A stretch of DNA of 64,000 nt, from the NCBI GenBank assembly GCA_033551855.1, contig JAWSUI010000017.1, forward strand, positions 1 to 64,000, written 5' to 3'. This document shows positions 854 through 17,320 of this stretch, one piece after another. Within the stretch, counting starts at the first letter, position 1, and each line of letters opens with the position of its first letter. The position numbers were made by a program, and so were the translations under genes. The notes beneath the pieces were generated by a model. The model made no database searches. It was not told where the DNA came from and worked only from the letters and a program-made list of their open reading frames with translations. Source of the DNA: Deferrisomatales bacterium. GTDB lineage: Bacteria; Desulfobacterota; Deferrisomatia; Deferrisomatales; JACRMM01.

Positions 854-2320
854 ATGGTGCAGATCCGAAAAAGGAGTTTGTTGCCCATGCCCAAGGTTGC
901 ACGCACATTCTTGTTTATCCTTATGGGGCTGTTCCTGGCAGGATGCCTGCTTGTTTTACTTGCCTGGCTGTTTATTGATTCTGACGACTTCAAAGGTCAT
1001 CTGGAGAAAACCGCCTCCCAGGCTCTGGGAATGAAAGCAGAAGTCCAAGGCTCGTCCCAGGTCCTGCTGTGGCCTGTACCCGGACTGCGGTTCGAGGATG
1101 TTGGCATCAGCAAAGGCGATTCTGACTGGCTTAAAGCCTCGGCATTGGAAGTCCGGGTTCGGATAATGCCCATGATCCGTGGCCAGCTGGAATTGGCCTC
1201 TCTATATCTGGTGGAACCTAACCTCCGCTTGGAGCGGATTGAAAAAGAAATATTCAACTTTATTCCAGACCATGAGCCTGAGGAATCAGGACAGGCAAAA
1301 CCTTTGACCATACGAAGCTTTAAGGTTTCAGATCTCAACCTGTCCTTCACCGACCAAATTTCCGACAAACGGATAACAGTTGAAAATTGTGACTGGACCG
1401 GACACGACCTGGAATGGAGTCCATCCCAGGCGGATAGACCTCAATTGACTCTGCCGGACTTCCACAGCAATCTGACCTGTAGCCAAATCACCTCCTCGAA
1501 CCTGGAAGCGACCGGAGTAAAGGCCAAAATATCCGGTCAAAGCCAGCAAATAATGATCGGCCAAGTGACCGGACGGTTGCTCGGTGGGGCGTTTGCAGGT
1601 TGGATGAAGAGCGATTTTGCCAGATCCCGTCCCCGTTATTCCCTTGAGCTTGAACTGGTCGATTTCCAGATCGAACGGTTCATTAAAACCTTCCGGGAGG
1701 AAAAAGGGGCTGAAGGTACAGCGACATTCGTCACCCAGCTCACTTCATCCGGCAAATCATCCTCTGAAATGGTGGCCAGCCTGAATGGCCAGGCAGAGAT
1801 TACAGGAACAGATATTATTCTGTATGGATTAAATATTGACGAACAGCTGGCCAACTATGAGTCCACCCAGCAGTTTCAGCTTGTGGATGCGGCGGCCTTT
1901 TTCGTGGCAGGTCCGCTGGGAGTCGCCATTACCAGAGGCTACGGCTTTGCCAGTCTCTTCGCTCATACCGGTGAGCAGACCCAGATCCGGGAATTGGTTT
2001 CAAAATGGGACTTTTCAGATGGTGTGGCCAAGGCCCAAGATGTAGCCTTCTCAACTGCAAAAAGCCGAATCGCGCTGGAGGGTGGTATTGATTATGCGAA
2101 CTCACAGTTCCAGGACCTGAAGGTGGCAGTGGTTGACCCTGAGGGTTGCGCGGTAGTTGAACAAGCTATTCAGGGGGACTTTCACAACCCCAAGGTGGAC
2201 ACTCCCAACTTCCTGGTAGCCCTGGCAGGACCGTTTATGGGCATAATAGAAAAGGGGGTAGGGCTGTTCACAGATAAAGAATGTGATCCGTTTTATACCG
2301 GCCGGGTTGCACCGCCATAA
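854..2320 (+). CDS. AsmA-family protein (gene cassette)
   Basis: N-terminal TM anchor, beta-rich body, AsmA-like C-terminus (IQGDFHNP). Stop codon lies inside the R'' box of attC2. Visibly lower GC than the backbone. Start may be 887. Confidence 0.8.
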   Translation: MVQIRKRSLLPMPKVARTFLFILMGLFLAGCLLVLLAWLFIDSDDFKGHLEKTASQALGMKAEVQGSSQVLLWPVPGLRFEDVGISKGDSDWLKASALEVRVRIMPMIRGQLELASLYLVEPNLRLERIEKEIFNFIPDHEPEESGQAKPLTIRSFKVSDLNLSFTDQISDKRITVENCDWTGHDLEWSPSQADRPQLTLPDFHSNLTCSQITSSNLEATGVKAKISGQSQQIMIGQVTGRLLGGAFAGWMKSDFARSRPRYSLELELVDFQIERFIKTFREEKGAEGTATFVTQLTSSGKSSSEMVASLNGQAEITGTDIILYGLNIDEQLANYESTQQFQLVDAAAFFVAGPLGVAITRGYGFASLFAHTGEQTQIRELVSKWDFSDGVAKAQDVAFSTAKSRIALEGGIDYANSQFQDLKVAVVDPEGCAVVEQAIQGDFHNPKVDTPNFLVALAGPFMGIIEKGVGLFTDKECDPFYTGRVAPP

Positions 2321-2383
2321 CAACAGGCTCGACGAGGATGTGCGGAAAAAGTGCCCGCACACCTGTCAGCCTGAACGTTAGGA
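2315..2383 (+). mobile_element. attC site 2
   Basis: R'' CCATAAC 2315-2321; arms CAGGCTCGAC / GTCAGCCTG; R' GTTAGGA 2377-2383. Confidence 0.9.
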
Positions 2384-2386
2384 ACC

Positions 2387-2983
2387 ATGAAGAGGAATAA
2401 CCCACCGATGCTATTGCACCAGCAATCTATTCGGATCTTGGCCGACTACAGTCAGGAGGCTGGATGGAACAAGCACTGTTTTGCCGTCGCACATGCGGCG
2501 GCAAAAGTTGGCCATGTTTTGTTAAAGAAGCGTCCAATTGACTGTGCCTTTCTCTGGTCTGCAGCTCTGCTGCATGACATTGGGAGATACCTAACACACG
2601 ACCCATTACTTCATGGCGTCGAGGGCTACAAACTGCTATCGATGCTGGGACATGAAAAGGAAGCCCACGTCTGCGCGTCGCACATTCTTTTCGGCCTCAA
2701 TGCGGCAGAGGCCACCCATCTGGGCTTGCCCGATCGCGACTTCGTGCCACGCACTGTTGAGGATAAGCTCGTGCCGCTCATCGATTACCTGATTGAGTAT
2801 GACCAGCCTACCACGCTAAACAGTAGATTTTCGTCGTTGCGGAAGCGCAATGGCGGCAACTCGTTTTTCTTGGATAGGCTTGGGCGCGCCTACGAGACTG
2901 CAAGACTATTCATGACACAGATCGAAGAGGAGATCGGCGAATCCATAGAGAGAATTGTCGCGTCGCAAGAGAACTGTTCCTAA
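2387..2983 (+). CDS. HD-domain (HDIG) phosphohydrolase (gene cassette)
   Basis: KHCFAV...ALLHDIGR...HGVEG...ASH...LID; begins 3 bp after attC2; stop lies in attC3 R''. Confidence 0.85.
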   Translation: MKRNNPPMLLHQQSIRILADYSQEAGWNKHCFAVAHAAAKVGHVLLKKRPIDCAFLWSAALLHDIGRYLTHDPLLHGVEGYKLLSMLGHEKEAHVCASHILFGLNAAEATHLGLPDRDFVPRTVEDKLVPLIDYLIEYDQPTTLNSRFSSLRKRNGGNSFFLDRLGRAYETARLFMTQIEEEIGESIERIVASQENCS

Positions 2984-3052
2984 CAAATGCGTCAACGCAA
3001 ATTGCCAACTCCGCTGTGCTCCGTTGGCAACCGGTTACGCATCGCGTTGGGC
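2978..3052 (+). mobile_element. attC site 3
   Basis: R'' TCCTAAC 2978-2984; ATGCGTCAAC / GTTACGCAT; inner stem TTGCCAAC / GTTGGCAA; R' GTTGGGC 3046-3052. Confidence 0.9.
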
Positions 3053-3334
3053 CGACAGGCGCAAGGACGGTGTTCCGCGCAACTCGAATGAGCGATATCG
3101 CGTGATCGGCTTCGGCGAGAAAGGCAGCTTCACCTGATCGGTCGCCGACCATCGGTGCGCCATGGTTGCGGAGGCGAAAGACGCCTCCCAGCCCGCGCTC
3201 GTTCCCAGTCGGGAGACCGCCACAAGGCAGCTCCCCCTCGAACCGCCGCCGCGCCGCCGTCAAAGCGTAGCCCACCTCACGAGGCTCGGTCGAACGCTGA
3301 CAGGGCCTCTCTCCGGCAAGATCCCAGGCATGCT

Positions 3335-3375
3335 TTGACGGATGGGGCCGTGTAGAATAACATGTCGTCCTACAC
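3335..3375 (+). promoter_or_regulatory. Sigma70-type promoter with candidate operator at the head of the defence operon
   Basis: TTGACG 3335-3340, 17-bp spacer, TAACAT 3358-3363; inverted repeat GTGTAG (3350-3355) / CTACAC (3370-3375) brackets the -10. Confidence 0.65.
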
Positions 3376-3411
3376 ATGACCGCGAAACGGACCACGAACA
3401 GGACGGCCAGC

Positions 3412-3623
3412 ATGGCCCATGCGGACCCCGGCATCCCCGCGCTGGTCAAGGAGCTCCGTGAACGGCTCCACCTAACCCAGGAGCAGTCGCGCAGAAGGTC
3501 GGCGTCACATACAGCACGGTGAACCGCTGGGAGAACGGGAACCGCATGCCCCAGCCGTTCCTGGTCCGACGCCTCCTGGAGTTGAAGGCGGAACTGGACG
3601 GTAGCCGGGGGAAGGTCCGGTGA
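3412..3623 (+). pseudogene. XRE-family HTH regulator (controller-like), frameshifted
   Basis: MAHADPGIPALVKELRERLHLTQEQ, then a 1-nt loss at ~3487, then AQKVGVTYSTVNRWENGNRMPQP...*. TGA overlaps the hsdM GTG. Alternative in-frame ATG at 3376. Confidence 0.8.
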
Positions 3624-5632
3624 ACCACTTCGGCGACAAAGTCAGCTTCATCTGGTCGGTCGCCGACCTGCTGCGCGGCCCCTACCGGCCGAACCAGTAC
3701 AAGGACGTCATGCTCCCCATGACGGTCCTGCGGCGGCTGGACTGCGTGCTGGAGCCGACGAAAGACAAGGTCCAGGCCAAGCTCAAGACCCTCGAGGGCG
3801 GCAAGGTCAAGAACGTCGAGCCGCTCCTCTGCCGGGTGACCGGCGTGCCCTTCTTCAACACCAGCCGTTACACCTTCGAGAAGCTCAAGGGCGACCCCGA
3901 CAACGTCGCGGCGAACCTCACGAACTACATCAAGGGGTTCTCCGGCCGCGCCCGCGAGATCATCGAGCACTTCGGCTTCGAGGAGCACATCGCCAAGCTC
4001 GACAAGGCCGACCGCCTCTTCCTGCTCGTCTCGAAGTTCTGCGAGATCGACCTCCATCCCGACCGCGTCTCGAACCTCGAGATGGGCTACATCTTCGAGG
4101 AGCTGATCCGGCGCTTCAACGAGGCGTCGAACGAGGAGGCGGGCGACCACTTCACGCCCCGTGAGGTCATCCGCCTCATGGTGAACCTGCTCTTCCTCCC
4201 CGACAGTGCGACTCTGACCACCAAAGGGATCGTCAAGACGCTCTGCGACCCGGCCTGCGGCACGGGCGGCATGCTGTCCGTCGCCGAGGAATACGTCCGC
4301 GAACTCAACCCCGACGCGCGCCTTACGGTCTTCGGCCAGGACTACAACTCGCAGGCGTACGCGATCTGTGGCTCGGACATGATGATCAAGGGCCACGACA
4401 TCGACAACATCCGCTTCGGCGACAGCTTCACGAACGACCACCTGGCCGGGAAGCGCTTCGACTACCTGCTCGCCAACCCGCCCTTCGGCGTGAAGTGGGA
4501 GGCCCAGCAGGACTTCGTCAAGCGTGAGCACGAGAGCCAAGGCTTCGGTGGCCGCTTCGGCCCCGGCCTGCCGCGCATCAACGACGGCTCGCTGCTCTTC
4601 CTCTTGCACATGATCAGCAAGATGAAGGACCCGAAGGACGGCGGCACCCGGCTCGCCATCGTCTTCAACGGCTCGCCGCTTTTCACCGGGTCGGCCGGCT
4701 CCGGCGAGAGCGAGATCCGCCGCTGGATCATCGAGAACGACTGGCTCGAAGGCGTCGTCGCCCTGCCCGACCAGCTCTTCTACAACACCGGCATCTACAC
4801 CTACCTCTGGATCGTCACTAACCGGAAGGCCAAGCAGCGCCGGGGCAAGGTCCAGCTCGTCAACACCGCGAGCTTCTTCAAGAAGATGCGGAAGAGCCTC
4901 GGGAACAAGCGCCATGAGGTCTGCGAGCCTCAGCGCGACGAGATCACGCGCATCTACGGCGAGTTCAAGGAGGGCGAGCACGTCCGCATTTTCGACAACG
5001 AGGACTTCGGCTACCGCCGGATCACGGTCGAGCGGCCGCTCAGGCTGAACTTTGCCGCCACGCCCGAGCGCCTCGCCGCGCTCGAGGCGGACTCGGCATT
5101 CCAGGCGCTGGCCGCGAGCAAGAAGCGCAAGGACAAAAAGGCCGCCGAGGCCGAGATCGCCGCCGGGCGTAAGCAGCAGCAGGTGATCCTCCAGGCGCTG
5201 AAGCCCGTCGCGGCGGGGGGCGTCGTCAAGAACCGCGAGGCGTTCACCGAGACGGTCAAGGCGACCCTCAAGCGCGCCGGCGTCAGGGTGCCGGCCGCCT
5301 TGCTGGGCAGGATCCTGATGGCCCTCTCCGAACGGGACGAGACCGCGGACGTCTGCACCGACTCGAAGGGCAACGTCGAGCCGGACCCCACGCTCCGCGA
5401 CTACGAGAACGTGCCGCTGAAGGAGGACGTCGCGGTCTACATGGCGCGCGAGGTTCTCCCGCACGTTCCCGATGCCTGGGTGGACGAGTCGAAGACCAAG
5501 ATCGGCTACGAGATCGGCCTCAACCGCTACTTCTACACCTACACGGCGCCGCGCCCGCTCGCGGAGATCGAAGGCGAGCTGAAGCAGATCGAGCAGGAGA
5601 TCGCCGACATGCTGGCGGAGGTGACGGAATGA
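3620..5632 (+). CDS. hsdM: Type I restriction-modification methyltransferase subunit M
   Basis: SFIWSVADLLRG N-terminus, DPACGTGGML (motif I), NPPF (motif IV, N6-adenine). Confidence 0.97.
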   Translation: MNHFGDKVSFIWSVADLLRGPYRPNQYKDVMLPMTVLRRLDCVLEPTKDKVQAKLKTLEGGKVKNVEPLLCRVTGVPFFNTSRYTFEKLKGDPDNVAANLTNYIKGFSGRAREIIEHFGFEEHIAKLDKADRLFLLVSKFCEIDLHPDRVSNLEMGYIFEELIRRFNEASNEEAGDHFTPREVIRLMVNLLFLPDSATLTTKGIVKTLCDPACGTGGMLSVAEEYVRELNPDARLTVFGQDYNSQAYAICGSDMMIKGHDIDNIRFGDSFTNDHLAGKRFDYLLANPPFGVKWEAQQDFVKREHESQGFGGRFGPGLPRINDGSLLFLLHMISKMKDPKDGGTRLAIVFNGSPLFTGSAGSGESEIRRWIIENDWLEGVVALPDQLFYNTGIYTYLWIVTNRKAKQRRGKVQLVNTASFFKKMRKSLGNKRHEVCEPQRDEITRIYGEFKEGEHVRIFDNEDFGYRRITVERPLRLNFAATPERLAALEADSAFQALAASKKRKDKKAAEAEIAAGRKQQQVILQALKPVAAGGVVKNREAFTETVKATLKRAGVRVPAALLGRILMALSERDETADVCTDSKGNVEPDPTLRDYENVPLKEDVAVYMAREVLPHVPDAWVDESKTKIGYEIGLNRYFYTYTAPRPLAEIEGELKQIEQEIADMLAEVTE

Positions 5633-6990
5633 CCTATCGCTCGCCTGAGGTCAAACCCTGCGAGATCCAGTGGCTCGGCACGATGCCGTCCCACTGGTCG
5701 TGCCGCCGCCTCAAGCACATCGCTTCGGTCGCGCTCAGCAGCGTCGACAAGAAGTCTCACGAGCAGGAAGAAGCCGTCCGGCTGTGCAACTACGTGGACG
5801 TGTACTACCACGAGCGGATCACGTCCGAGCTGGACTTCATGCAGGCGACCGCCACTCCCGACGAAGTGCGGCGCTTCACCCTGCGCTCCGGCGACGTGCT
5901 CATCACGAAGGACTCGGAGGCATGGGACGACATTGCAGTCCCGGCGTACGTGCCTGCTGACATCGAAGGCGTGCTGTGCGGATATCACTTGGCGCAGGTG
6001 CGCCCGCTCAATGGGCTGGTCGATGGGGAGTACCTCTCACGGGCCTTCGCAGCCCGAGGCATCAACGACCAGTTTCGCATTGCTGCCAACGGCATCACGC
6101 GGTTCGGAATCGGTAAGCACTGGATCGACAACTCGCTGTTCTTGCTTCCTCCTGTCGACGAGCAGCGCGCCATCGCCGCGTTCCTGGACCGCGAGACGGC
6201 GCGGGTCGACGCGCTGATCGAGAAGAAGCGCCGCCAGATCGAGCTGCTCCACGAGAAGCGCGCCGCCCTCATCAGCCACGCCGTCACCAAGGGCCTCGAC
6301 CCGACCGCCCCGATGAAGGACCCGGGGATCGACTGGCTTGGCCGCATCCCTCGCAGTTGGCGCGTGCTTCAGTTTCGCAGAGTCATCGGCGCGCTGGAGC
6401 AGGGTTGGAGCCCGGTTGCCGAGGATCGGGAGGCCGAGGCGGAAGAGTGGGCGGTGCTCAAGATCAGCGCGGTCGCACAAGGTTGCTTTCGGCCGAGTGA
6501 GCACAAGGCTTTGCCGCCGAGCCTTGAGCCTGAGATGCGCTACGAGGTTCGACCAGGCGATTTGCTCCTGACCCGCAGCAACACACCGGAGAAGGTCGGG
6601 GACGCGTGTTACGTCCGAGAGACGCGGCACCGCCTGCTGATGAGCGACCTAATCTATCGAATACACCTGGATCAGCGGACCTGTCTCCATCCCTACGCCT
6701 GTTACTGGCTGATCAGCCGTCCAGGTCGCGCCGCAATCGAGGCGGACGCTCGTGGAACCAGCGGCTCGATGGTCAAGATAGCCCAGAGGCACATCCGCGC
6801 GTGGCCTTTCCTCGTTCCGCCGGTGGAGGAGCAGAGCGCGATCGTGCGGTACCTGGATCGGGAGATGAGCCGGCTCGGAGTCATCGCCGGCAAGATCGAG
6901 ACGAGCATCGACCGCCTCCGCGAGTACCGCACCGCGCTCATCTCGGCCGCCGTAACCGGCAAGCTCGACGTGCGGGAGGCCATCGCATGA
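5629..6990 (+). CDS. hsdS: Type I R-M specificity subunit S
   Basis: Two TRDs separated by conserved PPxxEQxAI...ALISxAVT repeats; ATGA overlap with hsdM. Confidence 0.95.
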   Translation: MTYRSPEVKPCEIQWLGTMPSHWSCRRLKHIASVALSSVDKKSHEQEEAVRLCNYVDVYYHERITSELDFMQATATPDEVRRFTLRSGDVLITKDSEAWDDIAVPAYVPADIEGVLCGYHLAQVRPLNGLVDGEYLSRAFAARGINDQFRIAANGITRFGIGKHWIDNSLFLLPPVDEQRAIAAFLDRETARVDALIEKKRRQIELLHEKRAALISHAVTKGLDPTAPMKDPGIDWLGRIPRSWRVLQFRRVIGALEQGWSPVAEDREAEAEEWAVLKISAVAQGCFRPSEHKALPPSLEPEMRYEVRPGDLLLTRSNTPEKVGDACYVRETRHRLLMSDLIYRIHLDQRTCLHPYACYWLISRPGRAAIEADARGTSGSMVKIAQRHIRAWPFLVPPVEEQSAIVRYLDREMSRLGVIAGKIETSIDRLREYRTALISAAVTGKLDVREAIA

Positions 6991-8675
6991 GAATCACGAA
7001 GGTCCGCATCGAGAACTTCAGAGGCGTGAGGGAGCTTGAACTCGACCTCGACGAGACCACGGTATTCATCGGTGAGAACAACTCCGGCAAGACGTCGGTG
7101 CTCGACGCACTTCGACTGTGCCTGCGCGAACTCGGTCCAAGACGGCGCGTCGTTTTCGACAGCTTCGATTTCCATCTCAAGGACGGTGCGGCCGAACCGC
7201 ACTCGGCGGATCCTCTTCGCGTCGAGATCAGCTTCTCCGAGCAGTCGGACGGCGAATGGGATGATCCCCTCGTTGGCCGTCTCAACCGCAACAAGATCCT
7301 ACAGGTTGATGCCAGCGGTCTGCGACACGTCGTACTACGTGTAACGTGCGCCTACGACCCGACAAGCCGTGACTTCGCCCAGGATTGGACCTTCCTCAAT
7401 CTCGATCGTCAGCCGTTGACTGCGGTGTCCGAGACCGCGTTGCTGGCGCTTCAACGAGAGGTAGCCTTCTTCTACCTGACTGCGCTACGCGACGCGGCCC
7501 GGCACTTCGATGCCAAGGGTCCGTTCTGGCGACCGTTCCTGAAAGACAGCCAGCTCTCGCCCGAGAAGAAGGCCGAGATCGAGCAGAAACTAAGGGAGAT
7601 CAACGATCTTGTCGTGGCGTCCCACACGAGCTTCGAACAAGCGAGGGAGCGACTCGGCAACGTGCAGAACGTCGTCCCGATGGCAGGCGGGGACGTCGTG
7701 TCGATCGAAGCGGTGCCGGGACGGATGTTCGACATGCTCGCCAAGGCACAGATCCATCTCGGCGCATCCAGCGGAGCGAAGGTGCCGGTCGGCAGGCACG
7801 GCGAAGGGACCCAGAGCCTCGCCGTCCTGATGCTCTTCTCGGCATTCCTGGATGCGTGGCCGAACGGTACCCCCGTCGTGGCGCTCGAGGAGCCCGAAGC
7901 GCACCTTCACCCCTCCGCTGTCCGCGCGTTGTGGGACATTCTCGGTGTCATCGGTGGCCAGAAGTTGATCTCGACGCACAGCGGAGACCTGTTGTCCGAG
8001 GTCGATGTCCACAACGTCCGCCGTCTCGCCAGAAAGGAGGGACAGGTTCGGGCGTTTCGGGTGCCTCCGACGCTGCTTTCCGATGAGGACACAAGGAAGT
8101 TCAACTATCACGTGCGCAGGTCGCGCGGCGAGCTGCTCTTCGCGCGGTGCTGGCTTCTGGTCGAAGGGGAGACGGAAGCTTGGATCTTCCCTGCTGCTGC
8201 TCGTGCTCTTGCGCTCAGGCTCCACCGAGACGGTGTACGGGTCGTCGAGTACAGCCAGTCCGATGTTGGGCTGCTGGCCAAGGTCGCCAACTCGCTTGGC
8301 ATACCCTGGTACTGTGTTGTGGACGATGACTCCGGTCGAGATCAGTACGAGCCCAAGGTGAAGGATAACCTCGCCGGTGCTTCGGATGCCGACAGGCTCT
8401 GCCTGCCGTACCGGAACATCGAGACCCATCTTCTCGAAAATGGCTATGACGCGATCTATGGGCAGCACATGCCCGAACAGAATCTCGCAAAGGTGACCAA
8501 GAACCCGGGCGACGCGGGCTACTGGGCCGAGTACGCACACCACCTCCCGGGCAGGGCCAAGACACGAGCCGCCGCTAACGTAGCCGTCGAGATGGAGTCG
8601 CGAGGGGAGAGGGGCGTCACAACCGAGTTGCGCTCGGTCTTGGAGAAGGTCGTCGCCTTGGCGGAGGGCGGATGA
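6987..8675 (+). CDS. OLD-family ATP-dependent endonuclease (ABC ATPase + TOPRIM), GajA-like
   Basis: MRITKVRIENFRG, GENNSGKT, EEPEAHLHP, STHS, TOPRIM VEGETE and DDD; start taken as the ATG overlapping the hsdS stop. Confidence 0.9.
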   Translation: MRITKVRIENFRGVRELELDLDETTVFIGENNSGKTSVLDALRLCLRELGPRRRVVFDSFDFHLKDGAAEPHSADPLRVEISFSEQSDGEWDDPLVGRLNRNKILQVDASGLRHVVLRVTCAYDPTSRDFAQDWTFLNLDRQPLTAVSETALLALQREVAFFYLTALRDAARHFDAKGPFWRPFLKDSQLSPEKKAEIEQKLREINDLVVASHTSFEQARERLGNVQNVVPMAGGDVVSIEAVPGRMFDMLAKAQIHLGASSGAKVPVGRHGEGTQSLAVLMLFSAFLDAWPNGTPVVALEEPEAHLHPSAVRALWDILGVIGGQKLISTHSGDLLSEVDVHNVRRLARKEGQVRAFRVPPTLLSDEDTRKFNYHVRRSRGELLFARCWLLVEGETEAWIFPAAARALALRLHRDGVRVVEYSQSDVGLLAKVANSLGIPWYCVVDDDSGRDQYEPKVKDNLAGASDADRLCLPYRNIETHLLENGYDAIYGQHMPEQNLAKVTKNPGDAGYWAEYAHHLPGRAKTRAAANVAVEMESRGERGVTTELRSVLEKVVALAEGG

Positions 8676-10561
8676 TGGCACTGGACCTCGACATGCTCAA
8701 CGAGAACCAGCGCAAGGCGGTTGAGTGGCCGGAGGGACCGCTCCTTGTCCTGGCCGGACCGGGGTCGGGAAAGACCCTGGTCTTGACCCTGCGTGTCGCA
8801 CGCCTCCTCCAAGAGAACGACAACGCCGCCGTACTCGCGCTCACCTTCACAAACAAGGCGGCCGCGGAAATGCGAGAGCGCGTCGATCGCCTTCTCGGAC
8901 AGCACGGAGATCGCGCTCAGGTATGCACCTTCCATGCCTTCGCGACTGATGTGCTTCGACAGCATGGAAGTCATCTCGGCATTCAACCGGACTTTTCGCT
9001 CCTCACTCAGGAGGAGGACCGTGTTGCTCTCGTCGAAGAGATCGTGAGGGATCTGGCGGAGGAAGATCACGTTCTTCCAACCGATCACAGGAACACTCTC
9101 TCGCTGCTCGACCGCTTGTTTGCGTCATCGTACGAGGGTGGCGCGGAGGCTCCGTCGCTTGTGCACACGCCGGGATGGGTCCCGGAACTCTTCGCAGAAT
9201 ATTGCCAGCGCCTGACCAAGGAGAATCGGCTCGACTTTGGCGCGCTCCTGCACTTCGCGCGCAAGCTGCTGACCAGCTTCCCGGCCGTCACTCGCGTCCT
9301 GAGGGCCGGATGGACGCACGTGTGCGTGGACGAGTTCCAGGACACGAACAGGGCGCAGTACGATCTTCTTCGACTCATGGTCACGGAAAACAACCCGAAC
9401 CTGTTCGTCGTGGCGGACGACGACCAGATCATCTACCAGTGGAACGGTGCGAGTCCCGAGCGACTGCAGGCGTTGAAGCACGACTACCAAATGGAGGTCC
9501 TTCAGCTCCCCGAGAACTACCGCTGCCCTCGGGAGATCATTGACCTTGCGAACCAACTGATCCAGCACAACCGGTTGCGGACCGCGGAAAAGCAGCCACT
9601 CGTGACCAATCGCCCGGCGGGAATGGATGAAGGGGTCATCAGACTCGGAACGTACGACCAGCCCGAGGACGAAGCGGCTGCCATCGCGGCCGACATCCGC
9701 GACCGCACCTTGAACGCACAAGAGGTCGCGGTCCTCGCAAGAACGACGAAGCTCCTGGATCGGGCCGCCGAGGCCCTGCGCTCCGCGGGGATCGAGGCTC
9801 ATGTGACGCAACGCAAGGCGGAGTTCGAGACCCCGCTGGTTCGTGTCGTGTTTCATGCGCTCAGACTCGCCAACTCGCGACACGACCGGGACGTGCTCCG
9901 TCGCCTTTGCGTCGCCTGGGAGGCGTTGACGGATCAGGCCTTGGAGCTGGGCGACGTGACTGCCGCCGCAGCGCTCGTTGGCGGTGACTTCCTGCGCGCG
10001 TGGGCCGATGCCGCAACAGCTGACACGGCTGAAGGAGGCAAGGCTCTGGTCGAGCGCCTGCGCTCGTCGCTTGTGGATCGGCTGGAGTTCCCGGGCGTGG
10101 TGGACTGGTTCTTGGCGGAGGGCGCAAAGGCCCTCACGGACGCGAACGACCAAGCACTTGCAGTCGAGTTGGAGACATGGCGCGAGTTGCACGGGGAGCT
10201 AGTGCGTGAGCACGGCGAAGATGCGCTCACTTTGAACGTTTATCTTCAGCTCATGGACCTGGCTCCGAAGGCCCCACGCGCCGGGCCGAACGCCGTTCGT
10301 TGCATGACGGTACACGGAGCGAAAGGGCTTGAGTTCAAGCATGTGTACCTGATCGGGATGGCTCAGGAGGTGTTTCCCTCGTTCCAGGCGCTTCGGAAGG
10401 GACCTGCAAGCCGCGAAGTCGAGGAGGAGCGGCGCAACTGCTTCGTCGCGATCACGCGGGTTCAAGAGACACTCACCCTGACGTGGGCCCGCTCCTACTA
10501 TGGGTACCGCAAGGCTGCGTCGCAGTTCCTAAGTGAGATGGGCCTCGGAGTGGCGCAGTGA
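8672..10561 (+). CDS. UvrD/Rep SF1 helicase, GajB-like
   Basis: AGPGSGKT, TFTNKAA, DEFQD, DDDQIIY, NYR, TVHGAKGLEF, EERRNCFVAITR; coupled to the OLD gene. Confidence 0.92.
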   Translation: MMALDLDMLNENQRKAVEWPEGPLLVLAGPGSGKTLVLTLRVARLLQENDNAAVLALTFTNKAAAEMRERVDRLLGQHGDRAQVCTFHAFATDVLRQHGSHLGIQPDFSLLTQEEDRVALVEEIVRDLAEEDHVLPTDHRNTLSLLDRLFASSYEGGAEAPSLVHTPGWVPELFAEYCQRLTKENRLDFGALLHFARKLLTSFPAVTRVLRAGWTHVCVDEFQDTNRAQYDLLRLMVTENNPNLFVVADDDQIIYQWNGASPERLQALKHDYQMEVLQLPENYRCPREIIDLANQLIQHNRLRTAEKQPLVTNRPAGMDEGVIRLGTYDQPEDEAAAIAADIRDRTLNAQEVAVLARTTKLLDRAAEALRSAGIEAHVTQRKAEFETPLVRVVFHALRLANSRHDRDVLRRLCVAWEALTDQALELGDVTAAAALVGGDFLRAWADAATADTAEGGKALVERLRSSLVDRLEFPGVVDWFLAEGAKALTDANDQALAVELETWRELHGELVREHGEDALTLNVYLQLMDLAPKAPRAGPNAVRCMTVHGAKGLEFKHVYLIGMAQEVFPSFQALRKGPASREVEEERRNCFVAITRVQETLTLTWARSYYGYRKAASQFLSEMGLGVAQ

Positions 10562-10619
10562 TGGCAAGACTCTGCCGGAGTGATTGCAGCATGCGTACCT
10601 CTGCCCAAGGGGGTGGCGG

Positions 10620-11765
10620 ATGAGCCGCGTCGCCATCAAACCCGACCTCGTCCAGTGGGCGCGCGAGCGTGCGGGTCTCCCGGTGGGCGCCTTGGCGGGT
10701 CGGTTCCCGAAGCTCGAAGCCTGGGAGCGGGGCGAGGCGCAGCCGACGATGAAGCAGCTCGAGGCCTTCGCCAATGCGACGCACGTTCCGATGGGATACC
10801 TCTTCCTGCCGGAGCCGCCGGAGGAGCGCCTTCCGATCCCGGATTTCCGGACGCTGCCGAAAGTCGAACTGCGCACGCCGAACCCCGATCTGCTCGACAC
10901 GATCTACGCCATGCAGCAGCGCCAGGCGTGGCTGCGGGAGACGCTTCTCGACGGCGAAGCGGAGCCGTTGGAGTTCGTCGGCAGCGCGCGGTTAGAAGAT
11001 GTGCCCGAGGCCGTCGGCCGCGAGATGCGCCGGATCATCGGCTTCGGCGATGGCTGGGCCGCCGAGGTGCGGACGTGGCAGAAGGCCGTGTCGAGGCTGC
11101 GGCAGGCCATCGAGGATCTCGGAGTCATGGCCGTGATCAACGGCGTGGTCGGGAATAACACGCATCGGAAGCTCGACGTGCAGGAATTCCGGGGCTTCGC
11201 CCTCTGCGACCGCCATGCGCCGCTAATCTTCGTGAACGGTGCCGATGCCAAGTCGGCCCAGATGTTCACGCTGGCGCACGAGCTTGCCCACGTCTGGCTC
11301 GGGAGCGAGGGCGTCTCCGGATTCGAGGATCTGTTTCCCGGAGGATCGCAGATCGAGGACTTCTGCGACAAGGCGGCGGCGGAGTTCCTCGTCCCGGAAC
11401 GTGAGCTGAAGGGCGCCTGGAGCGACGCCAGGCGCACCGAGCGACCATTCGAGGATCTCGCGCGGAGGTTCAAGGTGAGCCCGATCGTCGCCGGCCGGCG
11501 CGCCATGGACCTCCGATTGGTCGATCGGGAGGCCTTCTTCACCTTCTACCGCGCATACGTCGCCGAAGAGCGGCGCCGGAGCAAGGGACCGGGAGGCGGC
11601 GACTTCTACAACAACCAGAACACCCGCGTCGGTGAGCTCTTCGCCACGCACGTGATCCGCGCGGCGATCGAGGGCCGCGTTGGTTTCAAGGAGGCGTACG
11701 ACCTGACTGGCCTGCGTGGAGGCGCCTTTCAGGAGTACGCCGAGCGCCTGGGGTTCGGGTTCTGA
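10620..11765 (+). CDS. XRE-HTH + ImmA/IrrE-type Zn metallopeptidase
   Basis: N-terminal HTH (WERGEAQPT), FTLAHELAH (HExxH), EDFCDKAAAEFL. Confidence 0.9.
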   Translation: MSRVAIKPDLVQWARERAGLPVGALAGRFPKLEAWERGEAQPTMKQLEAFANATHVPMGYLFLPEPPEERLPIPDFRTLPKVELRTPNPDLLDTIYAMQQRQAWLRETLLDGEAEPLEFVGSARLEDVPEAVGREMRRIIGFGDGWAAEVRTWQKAVSRLRQAIEDLGVMAVINGVVGNNTHRKLDVQEFRGFALCDRHAPLIFVNGADAKSAQMFTLAHELAHVWLGSEGVSGFEDLFPGGSQIEDFCDKAAAEFLVPERELKGAWSDARRTERPFEDLARRFKVSPIVAGRRAMDLRLVDREAFFTFYRAYVAEERRRSKGPGGGDFYNNQNTRVGELFATHVIRAAIEGRVGFKEAYDLTGLRGGAFQEYAERLGFGF

Positions 11766-12289
11766 TGGCGTCCAAGCACCGGTATATCCTGGACGCGGAC
11801 GTCTTCATCACCGCGAAGAACCGGTACTACGCGTTCGACATTTGCCCCGGGTTCTGGGAGAGCGTGGTCCATCATCATCGCGTCGGGCGGACCTACAGCA
11901 TCGACCGCGTGAGGAACGAGCTGCTCGTGGGACGCAAGACGGAGGATCTGGTGCAGTGGGTGACGAAGGACCTGCCCGACACCTTCTTCCTCGGCGTGGA
12001 CGATGACCCCGTGACCGCCGCGTACACCGATGTCATGATGTGGGTCCAGCGAAGCCCGCAGTACTTCGACCACGCCAAGGCGAAGTTTGCTACGGGTGCG
12101 GATGGCTGGCTGGTGGCGTACGCGAAGGTCCACGGCGCGGTCGTCGTCACGAACGAGGAGCGGCGCCCGGAGGCCAAGCGGGAGATCAAGCTCCCCGACG
12201 TCTGCGCTCAGTTCGAGGTGCCGTACACGGACACGTTCAGGATGCTCAAGGATCTCGCCGTTCAGTTCGAGTTCGGAGGGGTGCGCTGA
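11765..12289 (+). CDS. DUF4411-family PIN-like protein
   Basis: YILDADVFI, YYAFDICPGFW, ADGWLVA, VVTNE, IKLPDVC; TGATG coupling on both sides. Confidence 0.85.
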   Translation: MASKHRYILDADVFITAKNRYYAFDICPGFWESVVHHHRVGRTYSIDRVRNELLVGRKTEDLVQWVTKDLPDTFFLGVDDDPVTAAYTDVMMWVQRSPQYFDHAKAKFATGADGWLVAYAKVHGAVVVTNEERRPEAKREIKLPDVCAQFEVPYTDTFRMLKDLAVQFEFGGVR

Positions 12290-15200
12290 TGCCCGGCCGC
12301 CATACCGAAGCCGCCTTCGAAGCGGGGATCGAAGCCTACCTCACTGCCTCGGGCGGGTACGTGACCGGCGACCGCGACGCCTTCGACGCCGAGCGCTGCA
12401 TCGACCGGGCGGCCTTTCTGGCCTTCGTCCAGGAGACCCAGCCGGAGGAGTGGGCGTATCTCGAGAACCTCCAGAAGGGCAAGGCCGAGCAGACGCTGAT
12501 CGACGACCTCTGCCGCGCGCTCGACTCCGAGCACGAGGGCTGCCTCTCGGTCCTGCGTCACGGCTTCAAGTGCTTCGGGAAGCTCTTCCGCGCCGCCTGG
12601 TTCGCGCCCGCCAGCGGAATGAACCCCGAGGCCGAGCGGCGCTACGTGGCGAACCGCCTGACGATCACGCGGCAGGTGCGCTACTCGCCCCGGCACGTGA
12701 ATGCGCTCGACGTGCTTCTCTCCCTCAACGGCATTCCCGTCGTCACCGCCGAACTGAAGAACCCGATGACGGGGCAGACCTGGCGCAACGCTCTGCACCA
12801 GTACAAGCACGACCGGGACTCGTCCGACCTGCTGTTCCAGTTCAAGAGGCGCGCCCTCGTCCACTTCGCGGTGGACCCGGACGAGGTCTACATGACGACG
12901 CGGCTCGCGGGCCGCAACACGCACTTCCTGCCGTTCAACCGGGGCCGCGACGGCGGGGCCGGCAACCCGGAGAACCCGGGCGGCTGGAAGACCGCCTACC
13001 TGTGGGAAGAGGTCCTGGAGCGGCGGAGCCTGCTGGACATCCTCGCCCGGTTCATCCACCTGCAAGTCGAGGAGAAGCGCCTCGGCAGCAGGAAGGTCAA
13101 GCGGGAGGCGATGATTTTCCCGCGCTACCACCAGCTCGACTGCGTGCGGGCGCTCATCCGCGACGCGGGGGATCGCGGTGCCGGCGCCAACTACCTCGTC
13201 CAGCACTCGGCCGGCAGCGGCAAATCCAACTCCATCGCCTGGCTCGTCCATCGCCTCTCGACTCTGCACGACGTGCGCGACGAGAAGGTCTACGACTCGG
13301 TGGTGGTGGTGACGGATCGCGTCGTGCTCGACCAACAGCTCCAGAACACGATCTACCAGTTCGAGCACCGGCAAGGGGTCGTGCAGAAGATCGACCGCGA
13401 CTCGGCGCAGCTCGCCCAGGCGCTCGGCGCCGCCGTCCCGATCGTGGTCACCACGCTCCAGAAGTTCCCCTTCGTCACGGAGAAGATCGGCGACCTGCCG
13501 CGGCGGAAGTACGCCGTGGTGATCGACGAGGCGCACAGCTCGCAGGGCGGCGAGACAGCGACCGAGCTCAAGGGTGTCCTCGGCGGGGCGGCGATCCGCG
13601 AAGAGGCGCGCCAGCAGGCCGAGGAGCAGGGGCTGGCCGATCACGAAGAAGAGATCCTTCGCACGATCGCCAAGCGCGGCCGGCAGCCGAACATCAGCTT
13701 CTTCGCGTTCACGGCCACCCCGAAGTACAAGACCCTCGAAGTCTTCGGCGAGCCCGGCGCCGACGGGAAGCCGCGGCCGTTCCACCTCTACAGCATGCGC
13801 CAGGCGATCGAGGAGGGCTTCATCCTCGACGTGCTGGCCAGCTACACGACGTACAAGACCTACTACCGGCTGATCAAGTCGATCGAGGACGACCCCGAGG
13901 TCGACAAGCGCAAGGCGGCGCGCGCGCTCGCGCGCTTCATGAGCTTGCACCCGCACAACATCGCGCAGAAGACGGAGGTCATGGTCGAGCACTTCCGCCA
14001 CTTCACGATGCACAAGGTCGGCGGCAAGGCGAAGGCGATGGTCGTCACTGGGAGCCGCCTCCACGCCGTGCGCTACAAGCAGGCCTTCGACCGGTACATC
14101 TCCGAGAAGGGCTACCAGGGTATAAAGACGCTGGTCGCCTTCTCCGGCACGGTGATCGACCCCGACGCGCCGGGCGTCGAGTACACCGAGGTCGGGATGA
14201 ACCAGGGCATCCGCGAGAAGGAGCTCCCGGAGCGCTTTGGCTCCGAGGAGTACCAGGTACTCCTCGTGGCGGAGAAGTACCAGACCGGCTTCGACCAGCC
14301 GCTCCTGCACACTATGTATGTGGACAAGCGGCTCGCCGGCATCCAGGCCGTGCAGACGCTCTCGCGCCTCAACCGGACCTGCCCGGGCAAGGAGGATACC
14401 TTCGTCCTCGACTTCGTGAACGAGCCCGAGGAGATCCTCGCCGCCTTCCAGCCCTACTACGAGCAGACCCTCGTCGGCGAACGCGCGGAGCCGAGCCAGC
14501 TCTACGAGATCCAGGCCAAGCTCGACGGCCATCAGGTCTACCACAAGAGCGAGGTCGAGGAGTTCTGCAGGGTCTTCTACAAGCCCCGGCAGAACCAGAC
14601 GCCCGTCGACCACGCGCGCATGAACGCGTGCATTGATCCCGCGGTACATCGCTACACAGAGCTCGCCGAGGAGGAGCGCGAGGAGTACCGCAAGACGCTC
14701 GTGGCCTACCGGAACCTCTACGCCTTCCTCTCACAGGTCATCCCGTTCCAGGACTCCGACCTCGAGAAGCTCTACTCCTACATCCGGTTCCTGCTCACGA
14801 AGCTGCCTAAGGGCGACCGAGGCCCGGTCTACGACTTCGATGACGAAGTCGCGCTCAAGTACTACCGGCTGCAGAAGATCAGTGATGGCTCGATTCCCCT
14901 CGAAGCGGGCAAGGGCGGCGAGGTCGCCGGTCCCGTGGCGGTCGGGAGCCGCGCCGCCCAGGGCTCGCTGATCGAGCTTTCCCAGCTCATCGACATCCTG
15001 AACGAGCGCTTCGGCACCGACTTCAAGCCGGGCGACCAGCTCTTCCTCGAGTCGATTCGCGAGGATGCCCTCGCCGACCCCGAGATCCGCCAAGCCGCCC
15101 TCGCGAACACGATGGAGAACTTCGGCTACGTGTTCCTGAAGGCGCTGGAGGGCCTCTTCATCGACCGCATGGAGCAGAACGAGGACATCACCGCCCGCTT

Positions 15201-15792
15201 CATGAACGACCAGGACTTCCAGGAGCTCGTCGGCAAGCACCTGCTCAAGAAGGTCTACGAGCAGGTGCGCCAGGAACAGGCGAGGGATGGGCGTCCGGAG
15301 GCCGAGCCCTTCCAGCGCGTCGAGCCGAAGCCCGAGGACCGGTTCCGCACCTGCGTGCCGCTTTTCACGCTCAAGGCCGCTGCGGGCGCGTTCGGGGCGG
15401 ACCAGCACGTCGAGCCCGACGGCTGGGTCGCGCCGCGAACCTCGCGGCCGCTCTCGGAAGGAATGTTTGTGGCCCAGGTCGTGGGACACTCGATGGAGCC
15501 CCGCATCCCCGACGGCGCGTGGTGTCTCTTCCGCTCGCCGGTCACCGGATCGCGCCAGGGTCGCATCGTGCTCGTTCAGCACCAGTCCATACAGGACCCC
15601 GATGGCGACGGCAGCTACACCGTCAAACGCTACCAGAGCGAGAAGGAGGCGAGCGGCGACGATGGCGACGCATGGCGCCACAAGGTCATCCGGCTCCTTC
15701 CCGACAATCCCAGCTTCGATCCCATCATTCTGGCCGGCATCAACGAGGAGGAACTGTCGGTGATCGCGGAGCTGATGGAGGTGCTGCGATGA
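12289..15792 (+). CDS. hsdR: Type I R-M restriction subunit R with a C-terminal S24 (LexA-like) peptidase domain
   Basis: D..LSLNGIP...ELKN nuclease, HSAGSGKS, DEAH, QTLSRLNR; C-terminal VPLFTLKAAAG...VVGHSMEP...TVKRY. Confidence 0.95.
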   Translation: MPGRHTEAAFEAGIEAYLTASGGYVTGDRDAFDAERCIDRAAFLAFVQETQPEEWAYLENLQKGKAEQTLIDDLCRALDSEHEGCLSVLRHGFKCFGKLFRAAWFAPASGMNPEAERRYVANRLTITRQVRYSPRHVNALDVLLSLNGIPVVTAELKNPMTGQTWRNALHQYKHDRDSSDLLFQFKRRALVHFAVDPDEVYMTTRLAGRNTHFLPFNRGRDGGAGNPENPGGWKTAYLWEEVLERRSLLDILARFIHLQVEEKRLGSRKVKREAMIFPRYHQLDCVRALIRDAGDRGAGANYLVQHSAGSGKSNSIAWLVHRLSTLHDVRDEKVYDSVVVVTDRVVLDQQLQNTIYQFEHRQGVVQKIDRDSAQLAQALGAAVPIVVTTLQKFPFVTEKIGDLPRRKYAVVIDEAHSSQGGETATELKGVLGGAAIREEARQQAEEQGLADHEEEILRTIAKRGRQPNISFFAFTATPKYKTLEVFGEPGADGKPRPFHLYSMRQAIEEGFILDVLASYTTYKTYYRLIKSIEDDPEVDKRKAARALARFMSLHPHNIAQKTEVMVEHFRHFTMHKVGGKAKAMVVTGSRLHAVRYKQAFDRYISEKGYQGIKTLVAFSGTVIDPDAPGVEYTEVGMNQGIREKELPERFGSEEYQVLLVAEKYQTGFDQPLLHTMYVDKRLAGIQAVQTLSRLNRTCPGKEDTFVLDFVNEPEEILAAFQPYYEQTLVGERAEPSQLYEIQAKLDGHQVYHKSEVEEFCRVFYKPRQNQTPVDHARMNACIDPAVHRYTELAEEEREEYRKTLVAYRNLYAFLSQVIPFQDSDLEKLYSYIRFLLTKLPKGDRGPVYDFDDEVALKYYRLQKISDGSIPLEAGKGGEVAGPVAVGSRAAQGSLIELSQLIDILNERFGTDFKPGDQLFLESIREDALADPEIRQAALANTMENFGYVFLKALEGLFIDRMEQNEDITARFMNDQDFQELVGKHLLKKVYEQVRQEQARDGRPEAEPFQRVEPKPEDRFRTCVPLFTLKAAAGAFGADQHVEPDGWVAPRTSRPLSEGMFVAQVVGHSMEPRIPDGAWCLFRSPVTGSRQGRIVLVQHQSIQDPDGDGSYTVKRYQSEKEASGDDGDAWRHKVIRLLPDNPSFDPIILAGINEEELSVIAELMEVLR

Positions 15793-15796
15793 CACG

Positions 15797-15856
15797 GCCC
15801 AACAACAGCATGCAGCGGTCGGCGCTGCGCGCCGCCGCTGATGCTGAGCGTTCGCC
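15797..15856 (+). mobile_element. attC site 4 (closes the 12.8-kb cassette)
   Basis: R'' GCCCAAC 15797-15803; CAGCATGCAGCGG / CCGCTGATGCTG; R' GTTCGCC 15850-15856; begins 4 bp after the hsdR stop. Confidence 0.92.
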
Positions 15857-15878
15857 GAAATGAAGGAAGGGATTTCGC

Positions 15879-16139
15879 ATGCCGGAGATATCCCGCTTCT
15901 ACGGGATCGTCATCGCCATGTTCTGGGATGACCACAACCCACCCCATTTTCACGCCCGGTACGGTGGAAGCAACGCAGCGATCGAGATCGGATCACTGCG
16001 CATCCTGGATGGGACACTCCCGCCGCGGGCGTTGGGTCTGGTGGTAGAATGGGCCTCGCAGCACTCGGACGAACTCATGCGGAATTGGGAGGAAGCCCGC
16101 AGGAGCAAGCCGCTGCAGAAGATCGAACCTCTTCCATGA
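15879..16139 (+). CDS. DUF4160 protein (toxin of the DUF4160/DUF2442 pair)
   Basis: MPEISRFYGIVI...DHNPPHFH...KIEPL. Confidence 0.92.
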   Translation: MPEISRFYGIVIAMFWDDHNPPHFHARYGGSNAAIEIGSLRILDGTLPPRALGLVVEWASQHSDELMRNWEEARRSKPLQKIEPLP

Positions 16140-16152
16140 AGGGAGGCCAACC

Positions 16153-16452
16153 ATGATTCATGACGTGGTCGGCGCCGTGTACAAGGGCGGGTACCGTATC
16201 GAGATTGAGTTCGATGATGGCCAGAAGGGCGTCGTTGATTTCAGCGGGTACTTGGAACGAGGTGGGGTGTTCGATCGGTTCCATGACCTCGACTTCTTCA
16301 AGGGATTTTCGGTCAACGAGGACATAGGGACGTTGACCTGGGGTGATGAGTTGGACGTTGCCCCCGAGACGCTTTATGCAGAGGCGACTGGAAGGCCACT
16401 TCCATCATGGATGCGACCCGACGAAGAAGAGGCGCGGCGAACAAGTGCGTGA
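16153..16452 (+). CDS. DUF2442 protein (partner antitoxin)
   Basis: YRIEIEFDDG...GTLTW...DVAPETLY; 3' end runs into attC5. Confidence 0.9.
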   Translation: MIHDVVGAVYKGGYRIEIEFDDGQKGVVDFSGYLERGGVFDRFHDLDFFKGFSVNEDIGTLTWGDELDVAPETLYAEATGRPLPSWMRPDEEEARRTSA

Positions 16453-16517
16453 ACGCGGACGTAAGAAAGGCGGGCTATGCCCCGCCTTTCTTGCGCCTGT
16501 TACGCATCGCGTTCGAG
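16436..16517 (+). mobile_element. attC site 5
   Basis: R'' GGCGAAC 16436-16442; TGCGTGAAC / GTTACGCA; inner stem AAGAAAGGCGGG / CCCGCCTTTCTT; R' GTTCGAG 16511-16517. Confidence 0.9.
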
Positions 16518-16539
16518 CCAAGAATGAGGAATTAGAAGC

Positions 16540-16830
16540 ATGGGCCTCCGCTTCGAGTGGGACCGCCGGAAAGCCGCAGGCAACCTGCGGAAGCACGGCG
16601 TAAGCTTCGATGAAGCGAGCACTGTCTTCGATGACGCACTCGGCCGCATCTTCGATGATGAGGACCATTCAGAACGAGAACCCAGGGAGATCATCGTCGG
16701 CCACTCGGCGGCTGGCCGCCTCCTGCTGGTGTCTTTCACCGAGCGGGGAGAGAATGTGATCAGGATCATCAGCGCCCGACCAGCGACCCCACGCGAGCGA
16801 GATGACTATGAAGAAGACCAGTCCCACTGA
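16540..16830 (+). CDS. brnT: BrnT-family toxin (DUF497)
   Basis: FEWDRRKAAGNLRKHGVSF...HSEREPR...IRIISAR. Confidence 0.92.
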   Translation: MGLRFEWDRRKAAGNLRKHGVSFDEASTVFDDALGRIFDDEDHSEREPREIIVGHSAAGRLLLVSFTERGENVIRIISARPATPRERDDYEEDQSH

Positions 16831-17089
16831 ACACACCCCTGAACGAGGCGACGAACTCCGGGAGGAGTACCGTTTCGACTACACGAGGGCGAAGCCGAAT
16901 CGGTTTGCAGCTCGAGCCCACGAGCCCCGCGTGGTTGTGGTTCTCGATCCCGACGTTGCGGAGGTCTTTCAAACGCCAGATTCAGTCAACGAGGTCCTGC
17001 GAGCGCTTATTCAGACCATGCCAAAAGCCAATGGCCTGGACCCGAAGGCGAAGACGCTCGAACAACCGCGTAAACCAGACGCTCGATAA
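16802..17089 (+). CDS. BrnA-like antitoxin
   Basis: DELREEYRFDY...NRFA...LDPDVAEVF...VNEVLR; overlaps brnT. Confidence 0.85.
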   Translation: MTMKKTSPTEHTPERGDELREEYRFDYTRAKPNRFAARAHEPRVVVVLDPDVAEVFQTPDSVNEVLRALIQTMPKANGLDPKAKTLEQPRKPDAR

Positions 17090-17146
17090 GCTGGCTTTCT
17101 CTTTCCGGAAGCTGGCCGGCTCGCGCTGGTTACGCAGGTGTTCGTG
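17057..17146 (+). mobile_element. attC site 6 (last in the array)
   Basis: R'' CTCGAAC 17057-17063; GCGTAAACCAG / CTGGTTACGC; R' GTTCGTG 17140-17146. Confidence 0.85.
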
Positions 17147-17171
17147 GCAATCAGAATGATGAAATAGATGT

Positions 17172-17301
17172 AACCACAAAGACACGAAGAGGGCCATGCT
17201 GTTTCAATGGCAATTCAACATTCTTCTTTCTCTGTGCCTTCGTGTCTTCGTGGTTGGCGTCAAAAAAGCCAAATCCTGTAAATCCTGTTATCCTGTCTAA
17301 A
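17172..17301. repeat. Tandem-repeat hairpin element, partial copy
   Basis: AACCACAAAGACACGAAG 17172-17189 / CTTCGTGTCTTCGTGGTT 17238-17255, then ATCCTGTAA ATCCTGTT ATCCTGTC TAAA 17273-17301. Confidence 0.85.
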
Positions 17302-17320
17302 CTCCTTCCCGTCGCATCCA

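Follow-up and report, generated by a model that had tools for sequence, protein, structure and literature searches.

Can an integron carry an entire multi-system defence island between two of its attC sites, as a single cassette? The question is raised by a 64,000-nucleotide stretch of DNA (hereafter the window), the first 64 kb of contig JAWSUI010000017.1 (C17) in the assembly GCA_033551855.1 of a Deferrisomatales bacterium (4.24 Mb in 132 contigs), where a type I restriction-modification operon with further defence genes nested inside it lies in an array of attC sites. A sequence-only reading of this DNA had taken the whole block from 3047 to 15850 for one giant integron cassette. According to our analysis, this is correct with a probability of about 85%: the block would be one cassette of 12,804 bp with a type I operon as its backbone, which has moved as a unit between the arrays of distant bacteria and whose interior offers a variable slot. 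The proposal is supported by the absence of attC sites inside the block, by the recurrence of the unit at four other loci (L017 to L020), and by the junction of the neighbouring HD-domain cassette in another genome (G009).

The part of the window in question, from base 1 to about 17250, has a G+C content of 49 to 69%, compared with about 71% in the remaining window, and consists of plus-strand genes, each trailed by an imperfect inverted repeat AAC...GTT. These form a same-strand array of six cassettes which opens the contig and whose cargo is, in order, an unknown protein, an AsmA-like protein, an HD-domain protein, the large unit, a DUF4160 and DUF2442 pair, and BrnT with its partner. The large cassette runs from the T at 3047 to the G at 15850, and the ends originally proposed for it are exact, since they coincide with the GTT triplets of the two attC sites between which it lies (Table 1); in the upstream site, which belongs to the HD cassette, the bases from 3047 onward are already those of the large unit. 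The downstream attC has an L''/L' stem with one bulged base, its bottom strand forms one imperfect hairpin, and its crossover falls between 15850 and 15851. It is 96% identical to the attC found behind hsdR in L019 and L020. The hsdR stop codon ends 2 nt ahead of the 9-mer CGGCCCAAC and 4 nt ahead of its 7-mer core, so that the 4 bp given earlier holds for the core. In the six cassettes, the uninterrupted pairing runs between a cassette start and the R'' arm of its own attC are 5, 6, 9, 9, 8, and 8, with 9 for the large unit, whereas the 36 noncognate combinations in the array are limited to runs of 3 (25 cases), 4 (two), 5 (eight), and 6 (one), and never reach 7. The cognate run is likewise 9 in L017, L018, and L020. 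When rejoined to its own first bases, the attC of the large unit has a folding energy of −34.4 kcal/mol, versus −27.7 kcal/mol as it stands in the array.

The block had been described as devoid of internal attC sites, transposase, and integrase, and this description was borne out. Three methods bear on the attC sites, namely two covariance models and a structural scan. The first model, R1, was built from five window attC sites and was dropped as too narrow, since the held-out sixth site, attC0, scored only 5.5 bits. It was replaced by R2, built from 18 aligned attC sites of unrelated metagenome contigs and from no window site, and run with filters off over positions 1 to 20000. The top six matches of R2 are exactly the six window attC sites, at 47.4 (the site of the large cassette, E = 1.5e-10), 35.9, 24.0, 23.6, 19.1, and 19.1 bits. 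Inside the block R2 gives nothing credible, the highest match (6885 to 6953; 11.1 bits, E = 0.36) having no AAC/GTT ends and lying within conserved hsdS coding sequence. The structural rule (AAC, a spacer of 2 to 4 nt, six pairs, one bulged base, three pairs, the mirror arm, a spacer of 2 to 6 nt, GTT) finds all six known sites at 9/9 with at least 8 Watson-Crick pairs, and no site at 9/9 between 3061 and 15790, where 0.125 would be expected according to 40 codon-block shuffles. It also gives two sites at 8/9 inside the block, one of them at 8621 to 8722, compared with 0.55 expected and a maximum of 3. Ranking AAC...GTT pairs by raw hairpin energy was tried as well and rejected, as it failed to part attC from GC-rich coding sequence. 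Furthermore, outside 3047 to 3619 the genes of the unit overlap by 1 to 4 nt or sit at most about 58 nt apart, and therefore an intergenic attC has no room inside it. The domain scan of 18 open reading frames found no transposase or integrase domain.

The unit also recurs elsewhere. A search with HsdR gave 187 relatives; among the best 80, which were retained, L017 to L020 match HsdR over its full length, including its C-terminal S24 tail, at 88 to 93% amino-acid identity. According to the record titles, L017 is a Thermoleophilia metagenome-assembled genome (on a 4.6-Mb contig), L018 a Deltaproteobacteria metagenome-assembled genome, L019 a Candidatus Schekmanbacteria, and L020 a Planctomycetota. 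L017, L018, and L020 carry GTTGGGCCGA at the start, followed by a conserved 55-nt leader and the hsdM start, and all four end in an attC with the R'' arm CGGCCCAAC; L019, whose start is cut by the contig end, shares the body and the attC. Nucleotide identity to the window is 87 to 92% in hsdM (L017, L018, and L020) and 86 to 92% in hsdR. The cassettes are 9,237 bp (L017), 8,553 bp (L018), 10,307 bp (L020), and at least 9,472 bp (L019) long, and R2 detects attC sites only around the related cassettes and none inside them (in L017 at 1337 to 1430, 3617 to 3683, 4268 to 4370, and 13541 to 13607; in L020 at 3235 to 3304 and 13545 to 13611).

The neighbours differ from locus to locus. Upstream stand the HD cassette in the window, BrnTA in L018, and unrelated open reading frames in L017 and L020; downstream stand DUF4160/DUF2442 in the window, a nucleotidyltransferase gene in L017, unknown open reading frames in L019, and chromosomal genes in L018. 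The similarity between the window and the related cassettes, compared in L017, L018, L019, L020, and L135, stops exactly at G|TT. Since start, leader, hsdM, hsdR, and attC are the same while the neighbours are different and the breaks fall at G|TT, the junctions point to a family of cassettes of 8.6 to 12.8 kb that moved as units. The HD cassette tells the same from the other side of the upstream junction: the cassette at window 2378 to 3046 is 93% identical to L193 (G009:C42, 1447 to 2176), in a genome of the same family, where different cassettes flank it on both sides, where the sequence is unrelated from TT onward, and where the break is again at G|TT. Another genome of the same family, G010, shows the match pattern of L018 and may be the same genome, and therefore we count as independent lineages the family of the window and L018 plus three others. 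An integron integrase scoring above the TIGR02249 cut-off is present in four of the five relatives' genomes searched, the intI of the L019 genome being full length, and is not adjacent to the cassette where this could be judged. The plasmid collection holds no close copy of hsdR with the attC (identity at most 67%), and the phage collection gave no match.

The L018 locus shows some peculiarities of its own. An element of about 80 bp (TATCCTGTCAAAA ... TTATCCTG) occurs at both crossover points of its cassette, at 4927 to 5003 and 13558 to 13636, and its downstream attC lacks GTT. The two-cassette array of L018 lies between NuoF-like and Fer2_4/NuoG-like genes, and L051, an operon relative devoid of attC, lies between the same two kinds of genes.

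Table 1. Array sites and components of the large cassette in the window.
Feature	Position	Strand	Characteristics
Partial attC	1-60	+	GTT at 58-60; contig start falls inside the site
Full attC sites	745-812, 2319-2379, 2982-3048, 15801-15852, 16440-16513, 17061-17142	+	each behind plus-strand genes
attC of upstream HD cassette	2976-3052	+	R'' GTTCCTAAC 2976-2984; R' GTT 3046-3048; R2 23.6 bits, E 2e-4; structural scan 9/9 pairs
Start, leader, and hsdM 5' duplicate	3047-3160	+	start TTGGGCCGAC..., 55-nt leader, degenerate hsdM 5' end with in-frame TGA
Window-only module (about 460-520 bp)	3160-3619	+	promoter-like site, inverted repeat, frameshifted HTH gene
hsdM	3620-5632	+	670 aa, intact; Pfam N6_Mtase, HsdM_N; PADLOC MTase_I 972 bits, full length
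hsdS	5629-6990	+	453 aa; PADLOC Specificity_I 367 bits
gajA (Gabija ATPase/TOPRIM nuclease)	6987-8675	+	PADLOC GajA 663 bits, profile positions 1-567 of 569; Pfam DUF2813, AAA_15, OLD-like TOPRIM
gajB (Gabija UvrD-like helicase)	8672-10561	+	PADLOC GajB 760 bits, full length; Pfam UvrD-helicase, UvrD_C
M78 (ImmA/IrrE-type) metallopeptidase	10584-11765	+	Pfam Peptidase_M78 E 2.4e-17; start uncertain, 10584 to about 10620
DUF4411 gene	11765-12289	+	174 aa; Pfam DUF4411 E 4e-45; 89% amino-acid identity in L019
hsdR	12289-15792	+	1167 aa; Pfam HSDR_N, SWI2_SNF2, T1R_D3-like, Peptidase_S24; PADLOC REase_I
attC of large cassette	15795-15856	+	R'' CGGCCCAAC 15795-15803 (AAC 15801-15803); R' GTT 15850-15852; structural scan 9/9

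Eight genes had been counted in the unit; seven are intact (hsdM, hsdS, gajA, gajB, the M78 peptidase gene, the DUF4411 gene, and hsdR with its S24 tail), and the eighth is a frameshifted helix-turn-helix (HTH) gene. These seven genes are full length against profiles or relatives. HsdM, HsdS, and HsdR are all complete according to Pfam, PADLOC, and alignment to relatives, and constitute a type I system within which Gabija and the M78/DUF4411 pair are nested. HsdS matches its relatives only in conserved central and C-terminal stretches. The Gabija system comprises adjacent full-length gajA and gajB genes with a 4-nt overlap, the gajA start also overlapping the hsdS stop (ATGA); gajA is absent from L017 to L020. 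The M78 peptidase is present in L019 at 93% amino-acid identity, and remnants of its gene are found in L018 and L020.

The 5' end of the window copy departs from that of its relatives. The stretch from 3047 to 3160 aligns with the start, leader, and hsdM 5' end of L017, L018, and L020, and also with the window's own hsdM 5' end at 3620, the degenerate extra copy of the latter being 3102 to 3160. Between the two lies a module that has no homologue in L017 to L020. It carries a sigma-70-like promoter (TTGACG-17-TAACAT, 3335 to 3363; one site in a promoter scan versus 0.1 expected), an operator-like inverted repeat GTGTAG/CTACAC (3350 to 3355 and 3370 to 3375) which brackets the −10 box, and an XRE-type HTH gene, whose first frame spans 3412 to 3522 and second frame 3483 to 3623, with a frameshift near 3480 to 3500; HTH_3 is recognised in the second frame only (E = 1.3e-7). 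A promoter of its own had been attributed to the cassette, and a promoter-like site is indeed present, but it sits in this module, which the related cassettes do not possess. The restriction of the promoter and HTH module to the window copy implies that the ancestral cassette had no promoter, as is the case in ordinary cassettes.

Between hsdM/hsdS and hsdR the five copies carry different cargo: Gabija and M78/DUF4411 in the window, DarT/DarG and M78/DUF4411 in L019, RhuM with remnants of M78 and DUF4411 in L018, a CHAT-domain protein and DUF3800 in L017, and an AAA ATPase and Fic in L020. The hsdM 3' end is duplicated in L018 and L019, and these duplications, together with the degenerate 5' end in the window, indicate that the interior modules are brought in through homologous exchange among related operons rather than at attC sites.

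The S24 tail of HsdR is a feature in its own right. The last approximately 110 residues (window 15250 to 15792) form an S24 LexA/UmuD-like peptidase domain which keeps the serine-lysine motif GHSMEP ... TVKRY. The tail occurs in seven of the best 80 HsdR relatives (L017 to L020, L051, L058, and L079), most others stopping near residue 1000, and it has no match among the sequences of the solved-structure databank at E up to 0.01. One might speculate that the tail, by cleaving itself, links restriction to DNA damage and thereby serves as a kind of restriction alleviation.

The attC of the large cassette belongs to a common type. A degenerate 23-mer derived from it matches 71 metagenome contigs (L107 to L177), across which the attC family is conserved almost base for base with many different cargos, and many unrelated cassettes in these contigs begin with GTTGGGCCGAC. 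Only three of the 71 contigs have hsdR upstream, matching the 3' junction of the cassette, and the remainder carry other cargo, for which reason the restriction-modification operon appears to have acquired an attC of this common, highly conserved family. The broader clade of HsdR consists of ordinary chromosomal cargo: R2 detects no attC at L051, L058, and L079 (73 to 79% identity, S24 tail present) nor at 72 further loci. A separate case is L057 (4456 to 7598), from the isolate Desulfoferrobacter suflitae DRH4, where an hsdM-hsdS-hsdR operon with 77% HsdR identity and no S24 tail has an attC of a different type directly behind it. The genome of this isolate has a full-length integron integrase on another contig, and D. 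suflitae DRH4 is a possible culturable test system.

The array itself occupies what we regard as a variable chromosomal spot. Chromosomal homology to a same-genus genome begins at window 17250, and the array is absent from both same-genus genomes searched (95% and 86% complete). In one of them, G006, the locus of the array (L188; G006:C28, reverse strand) is occupied by a HicB/HicA-like pair with one copy of the ATCCTGT motif on either side. An intergenic repeat of the form ATCCTGT n ATCCTGT TATCCTGTC occurs at 27 places in the window's genome, and its copy at 17273 to 17300 marks the junction of array and chromosome; the motif is native also to L018 and to G006. Between the last attC and the chromosomal homology lie about 110 bp of A+T-rich sequence (17143 to 17250) with a 19-nt inverted repeat (AACCACAAAGACACGAAGAGG / CCTTCGTGTCTTCGTGGTT), which may be what is left of a terminal cassette or of the site of the original insertion. 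Overlap linking of the array's contig start to other contigs gave nothing useful. A low-G+C stretch on a 7.4-kb contig (C102:1-2500) contains an attC on the minus strand (1785 to 1881; R1 41.5 bits) and is possibly another piece of this array or of a second one. An Rfam scan of positions 1 to 20000 at E up to 1 matched zero families.

Taken together, the following course of events is proposed. A type I operon (hsdM, hsdS, and hsdR with its S24 tail) would have acquired an attC directly behind hsdR, and would then have travelled with its 55-nt promoterless leader as a unit between distant arrays by IntI-type attC recombination, with the crossover at G|TT. The stretch between hsdM/hsdS and hsdR would serve as a second-level slot in which defence modules are swapped by ordinary recombination between related operons, and the window copy would later have gained the 5' module with its promoter-like site and its HTH gene, now frameshifted. 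Of this, the attC sites, the cassette ends, the genes, the lack of attC sites in the interior, and the recurrence in other contexts with breaks at G|TT are directly seen. We infer from the junctions that IntI could mobilise the cassette as one circle. An integron integrase would have moved it in the past, this copy may still be excisable, and its genes would protect against phage.

Several observations weigh against this interpretation. No integron integrase was detected in the assembly, the top TIGR02249 match reaching 84 bits versus a cut-off of 265; fragments at the ends of C97, C116, and C7 that were considered as pieces of intI were rejected, being halves of XerC (adjacent to hslV) and a phage-type integrase beside a tRNA. 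Since the array runs off the contig start, a complete integron and an integrase-less cluster are both possible. In this attC family the first bulged base reads G on the coding strand and C on the bottom strand, whereas the canonical base on the bottom strand is G. The records of the relatives are mostly metagenome-assembled genomes whose taxonomic labels are possibly imperfect, and L020 is on a 17-kb contig. Moreover, the 9/9 match between the two ends, although present as claimed, is weaker proof than had been assumed, because GTTGGGCCGAC and CGGCCCAAC are the consensus R boxes of a widespread attC family, and on its own it would not link them; the match discriminates within the mixed array of the window, and the comparative junctions are the stronger evidence. 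As regards length, published experiments report that excision has a frequency of 1.17e-3 at 60 bp and drops to 5.25e-5 at +3,000 bp (mBio 2017, PMC5371416), and that a capture screen did not recover a 4-kb cassette, which was judged immobile (preprint 10.64898/2026.03.17.712381).

This length dependence, together with the missing intI and the absence of the array from both same-genus genomes, lends some weight to the view that the unit is a true cassette by descent which is now fixed, its spread having occurred when it was smaller or only rarely, and the same view gains from the decayed copies of the attC, which is interrupted in L018 and truncated in L134 and L144. We deem this doubtful, albeit the alternative to be taken most seriously. 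The window attC is intact and the top-scoring one in the window, all seven genes are full length, and an integrase acting in trans is possible given an assembly of 132 contigs. Since the smallest related copy is still 8.6 kb, transfer would have taken place at more than 8 kb.

It is improbable, in our opinion, that homologous recombination between conserved attC sequences, or the transfer of whole array segments by transformation or conjugative elements, accounts for the distribution in place of integrase excision of a 10-kb circle. The near identity of the attC family in the 71 metagenome contigs offers homology in arrays built from it, and the interior, with its duplicated hsdM 5' and 3' ends, clearly evolves by homologous exchange. 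However, the upstream attC of the window is of a different sequence type, both neighbours are unrelated to those of L017 to L020, and the breaks fall exactly at G|TT although no flanking homology is available there.

Very improbable is the invasion of a small cassette by a restriction-modification island, or the fusion of cassettes after attC loss, as the mosaic interior, the secondary 5' insertion in the window copy, and the two weak attC-like matches (6885 to 6953 and 8621 to 8722) might suggest; hsdM begins 55 nt after the start in three relatives, hsdR ends 2 to 50 nt before the attC in four, no remnant of other cargo is present, and the weak matches, which fall within coding sequence, are without AAC/GTT ends or without a single hairpin and do not exceed chance level. 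The sequence-only reading had set out, as a refuting scenario, a small cassette with these ends that was later invaded; it was not found among the relatives, and the leader with this attC around a small non-hsd gene was not seen among the loci with hsdR upstream. Cassettes that begin with the family-typical GTTGGGCCGAC and carry different cargo do exist.

With a cassette that has moved as a unit as the preferred reading, what would it mean for integrons? The unit departs from the typical cassette form of one promoterless open reading frame of about 0.5 to 2 kb, with 12,804 bp, seven intact genes plus a pseudogene, and a promoter-like site. In the literature, the largest known cassettes were put at about 2 kb in 2016, integron defence systems are said to "never exceed 2 components", long loci being absent (Darracq et al., 10.1101/2024.07.02.601686), and standard detection groups attC sites at most 4 kb apart. 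Our search of an incomplete full-text collection revealed no type I restriction-modification cassette and no cassette of more than 10 kb, although the supplementary tables of Darracq et al. and Kieffer et al. may list exceptions. We lean slightly towards the general statement that there is no hard size limit, and that integrases move multi-system defence islands of more than 10 kb between phyla as single two-tier cassettes which surveys have missed. Present accounts take cassette size as a biological limit of integrons; if the general statement is true, the notion that only streamlined one- or two-gene defences occur in integrons would be partly a detection artefact of surveys which cluster attC sites within 4 kb. 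A family of 8.6 to 12.8 kb with conserved ends in the arrays of distant lineages suggests that whole multi-gene defence islands can ride integrons. It also provides a test object for the length dependence of attC x attC excision and for the genesis of cassettes, with the attC-less operons L051, L058, and L079 for comparison.

Defence genes embedded in type I operons are familiar, accessory modules lying between hsdS and hsdR with a content that varies among similar operons. The slot of the window operon is arranged in the same way; here, instead, the whole operon with its slot is packaged as an integron cassette. The anti-phage cassettes known as BRiCs (Kieffer et al., 10.1101/2024.07.02.601719; Darracq et al.) resemble it in that defence genes lie between attC sites in a same-strand array and in that their cargo has homologues outside integrons which lack an attC. 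They differ in being streamlined, with type II and type IV restriction prevailing, whereas the window cassette, at 12.8 kb, brings together a type I system of three components, Gabija with its two components, and two further genes. Type II restriction-modification cassettes (e.g., XbaI; PMC10661359) share restriction-modification as integron cargo but comprise two genes in about 2 kb, while the present type I operon measures at least 8.6 kb in every copy seen. Finally, the array resembles the CALIN elements of Cury et al. (2016, PMC4889954), clusters of attC sites lacking an integrase: it has no integrase within reach and occupies a variable spot of the chromosome where a same-genus genome carries something else. 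In default mode, the 12.8-kb gap between its attC sites would split the array.

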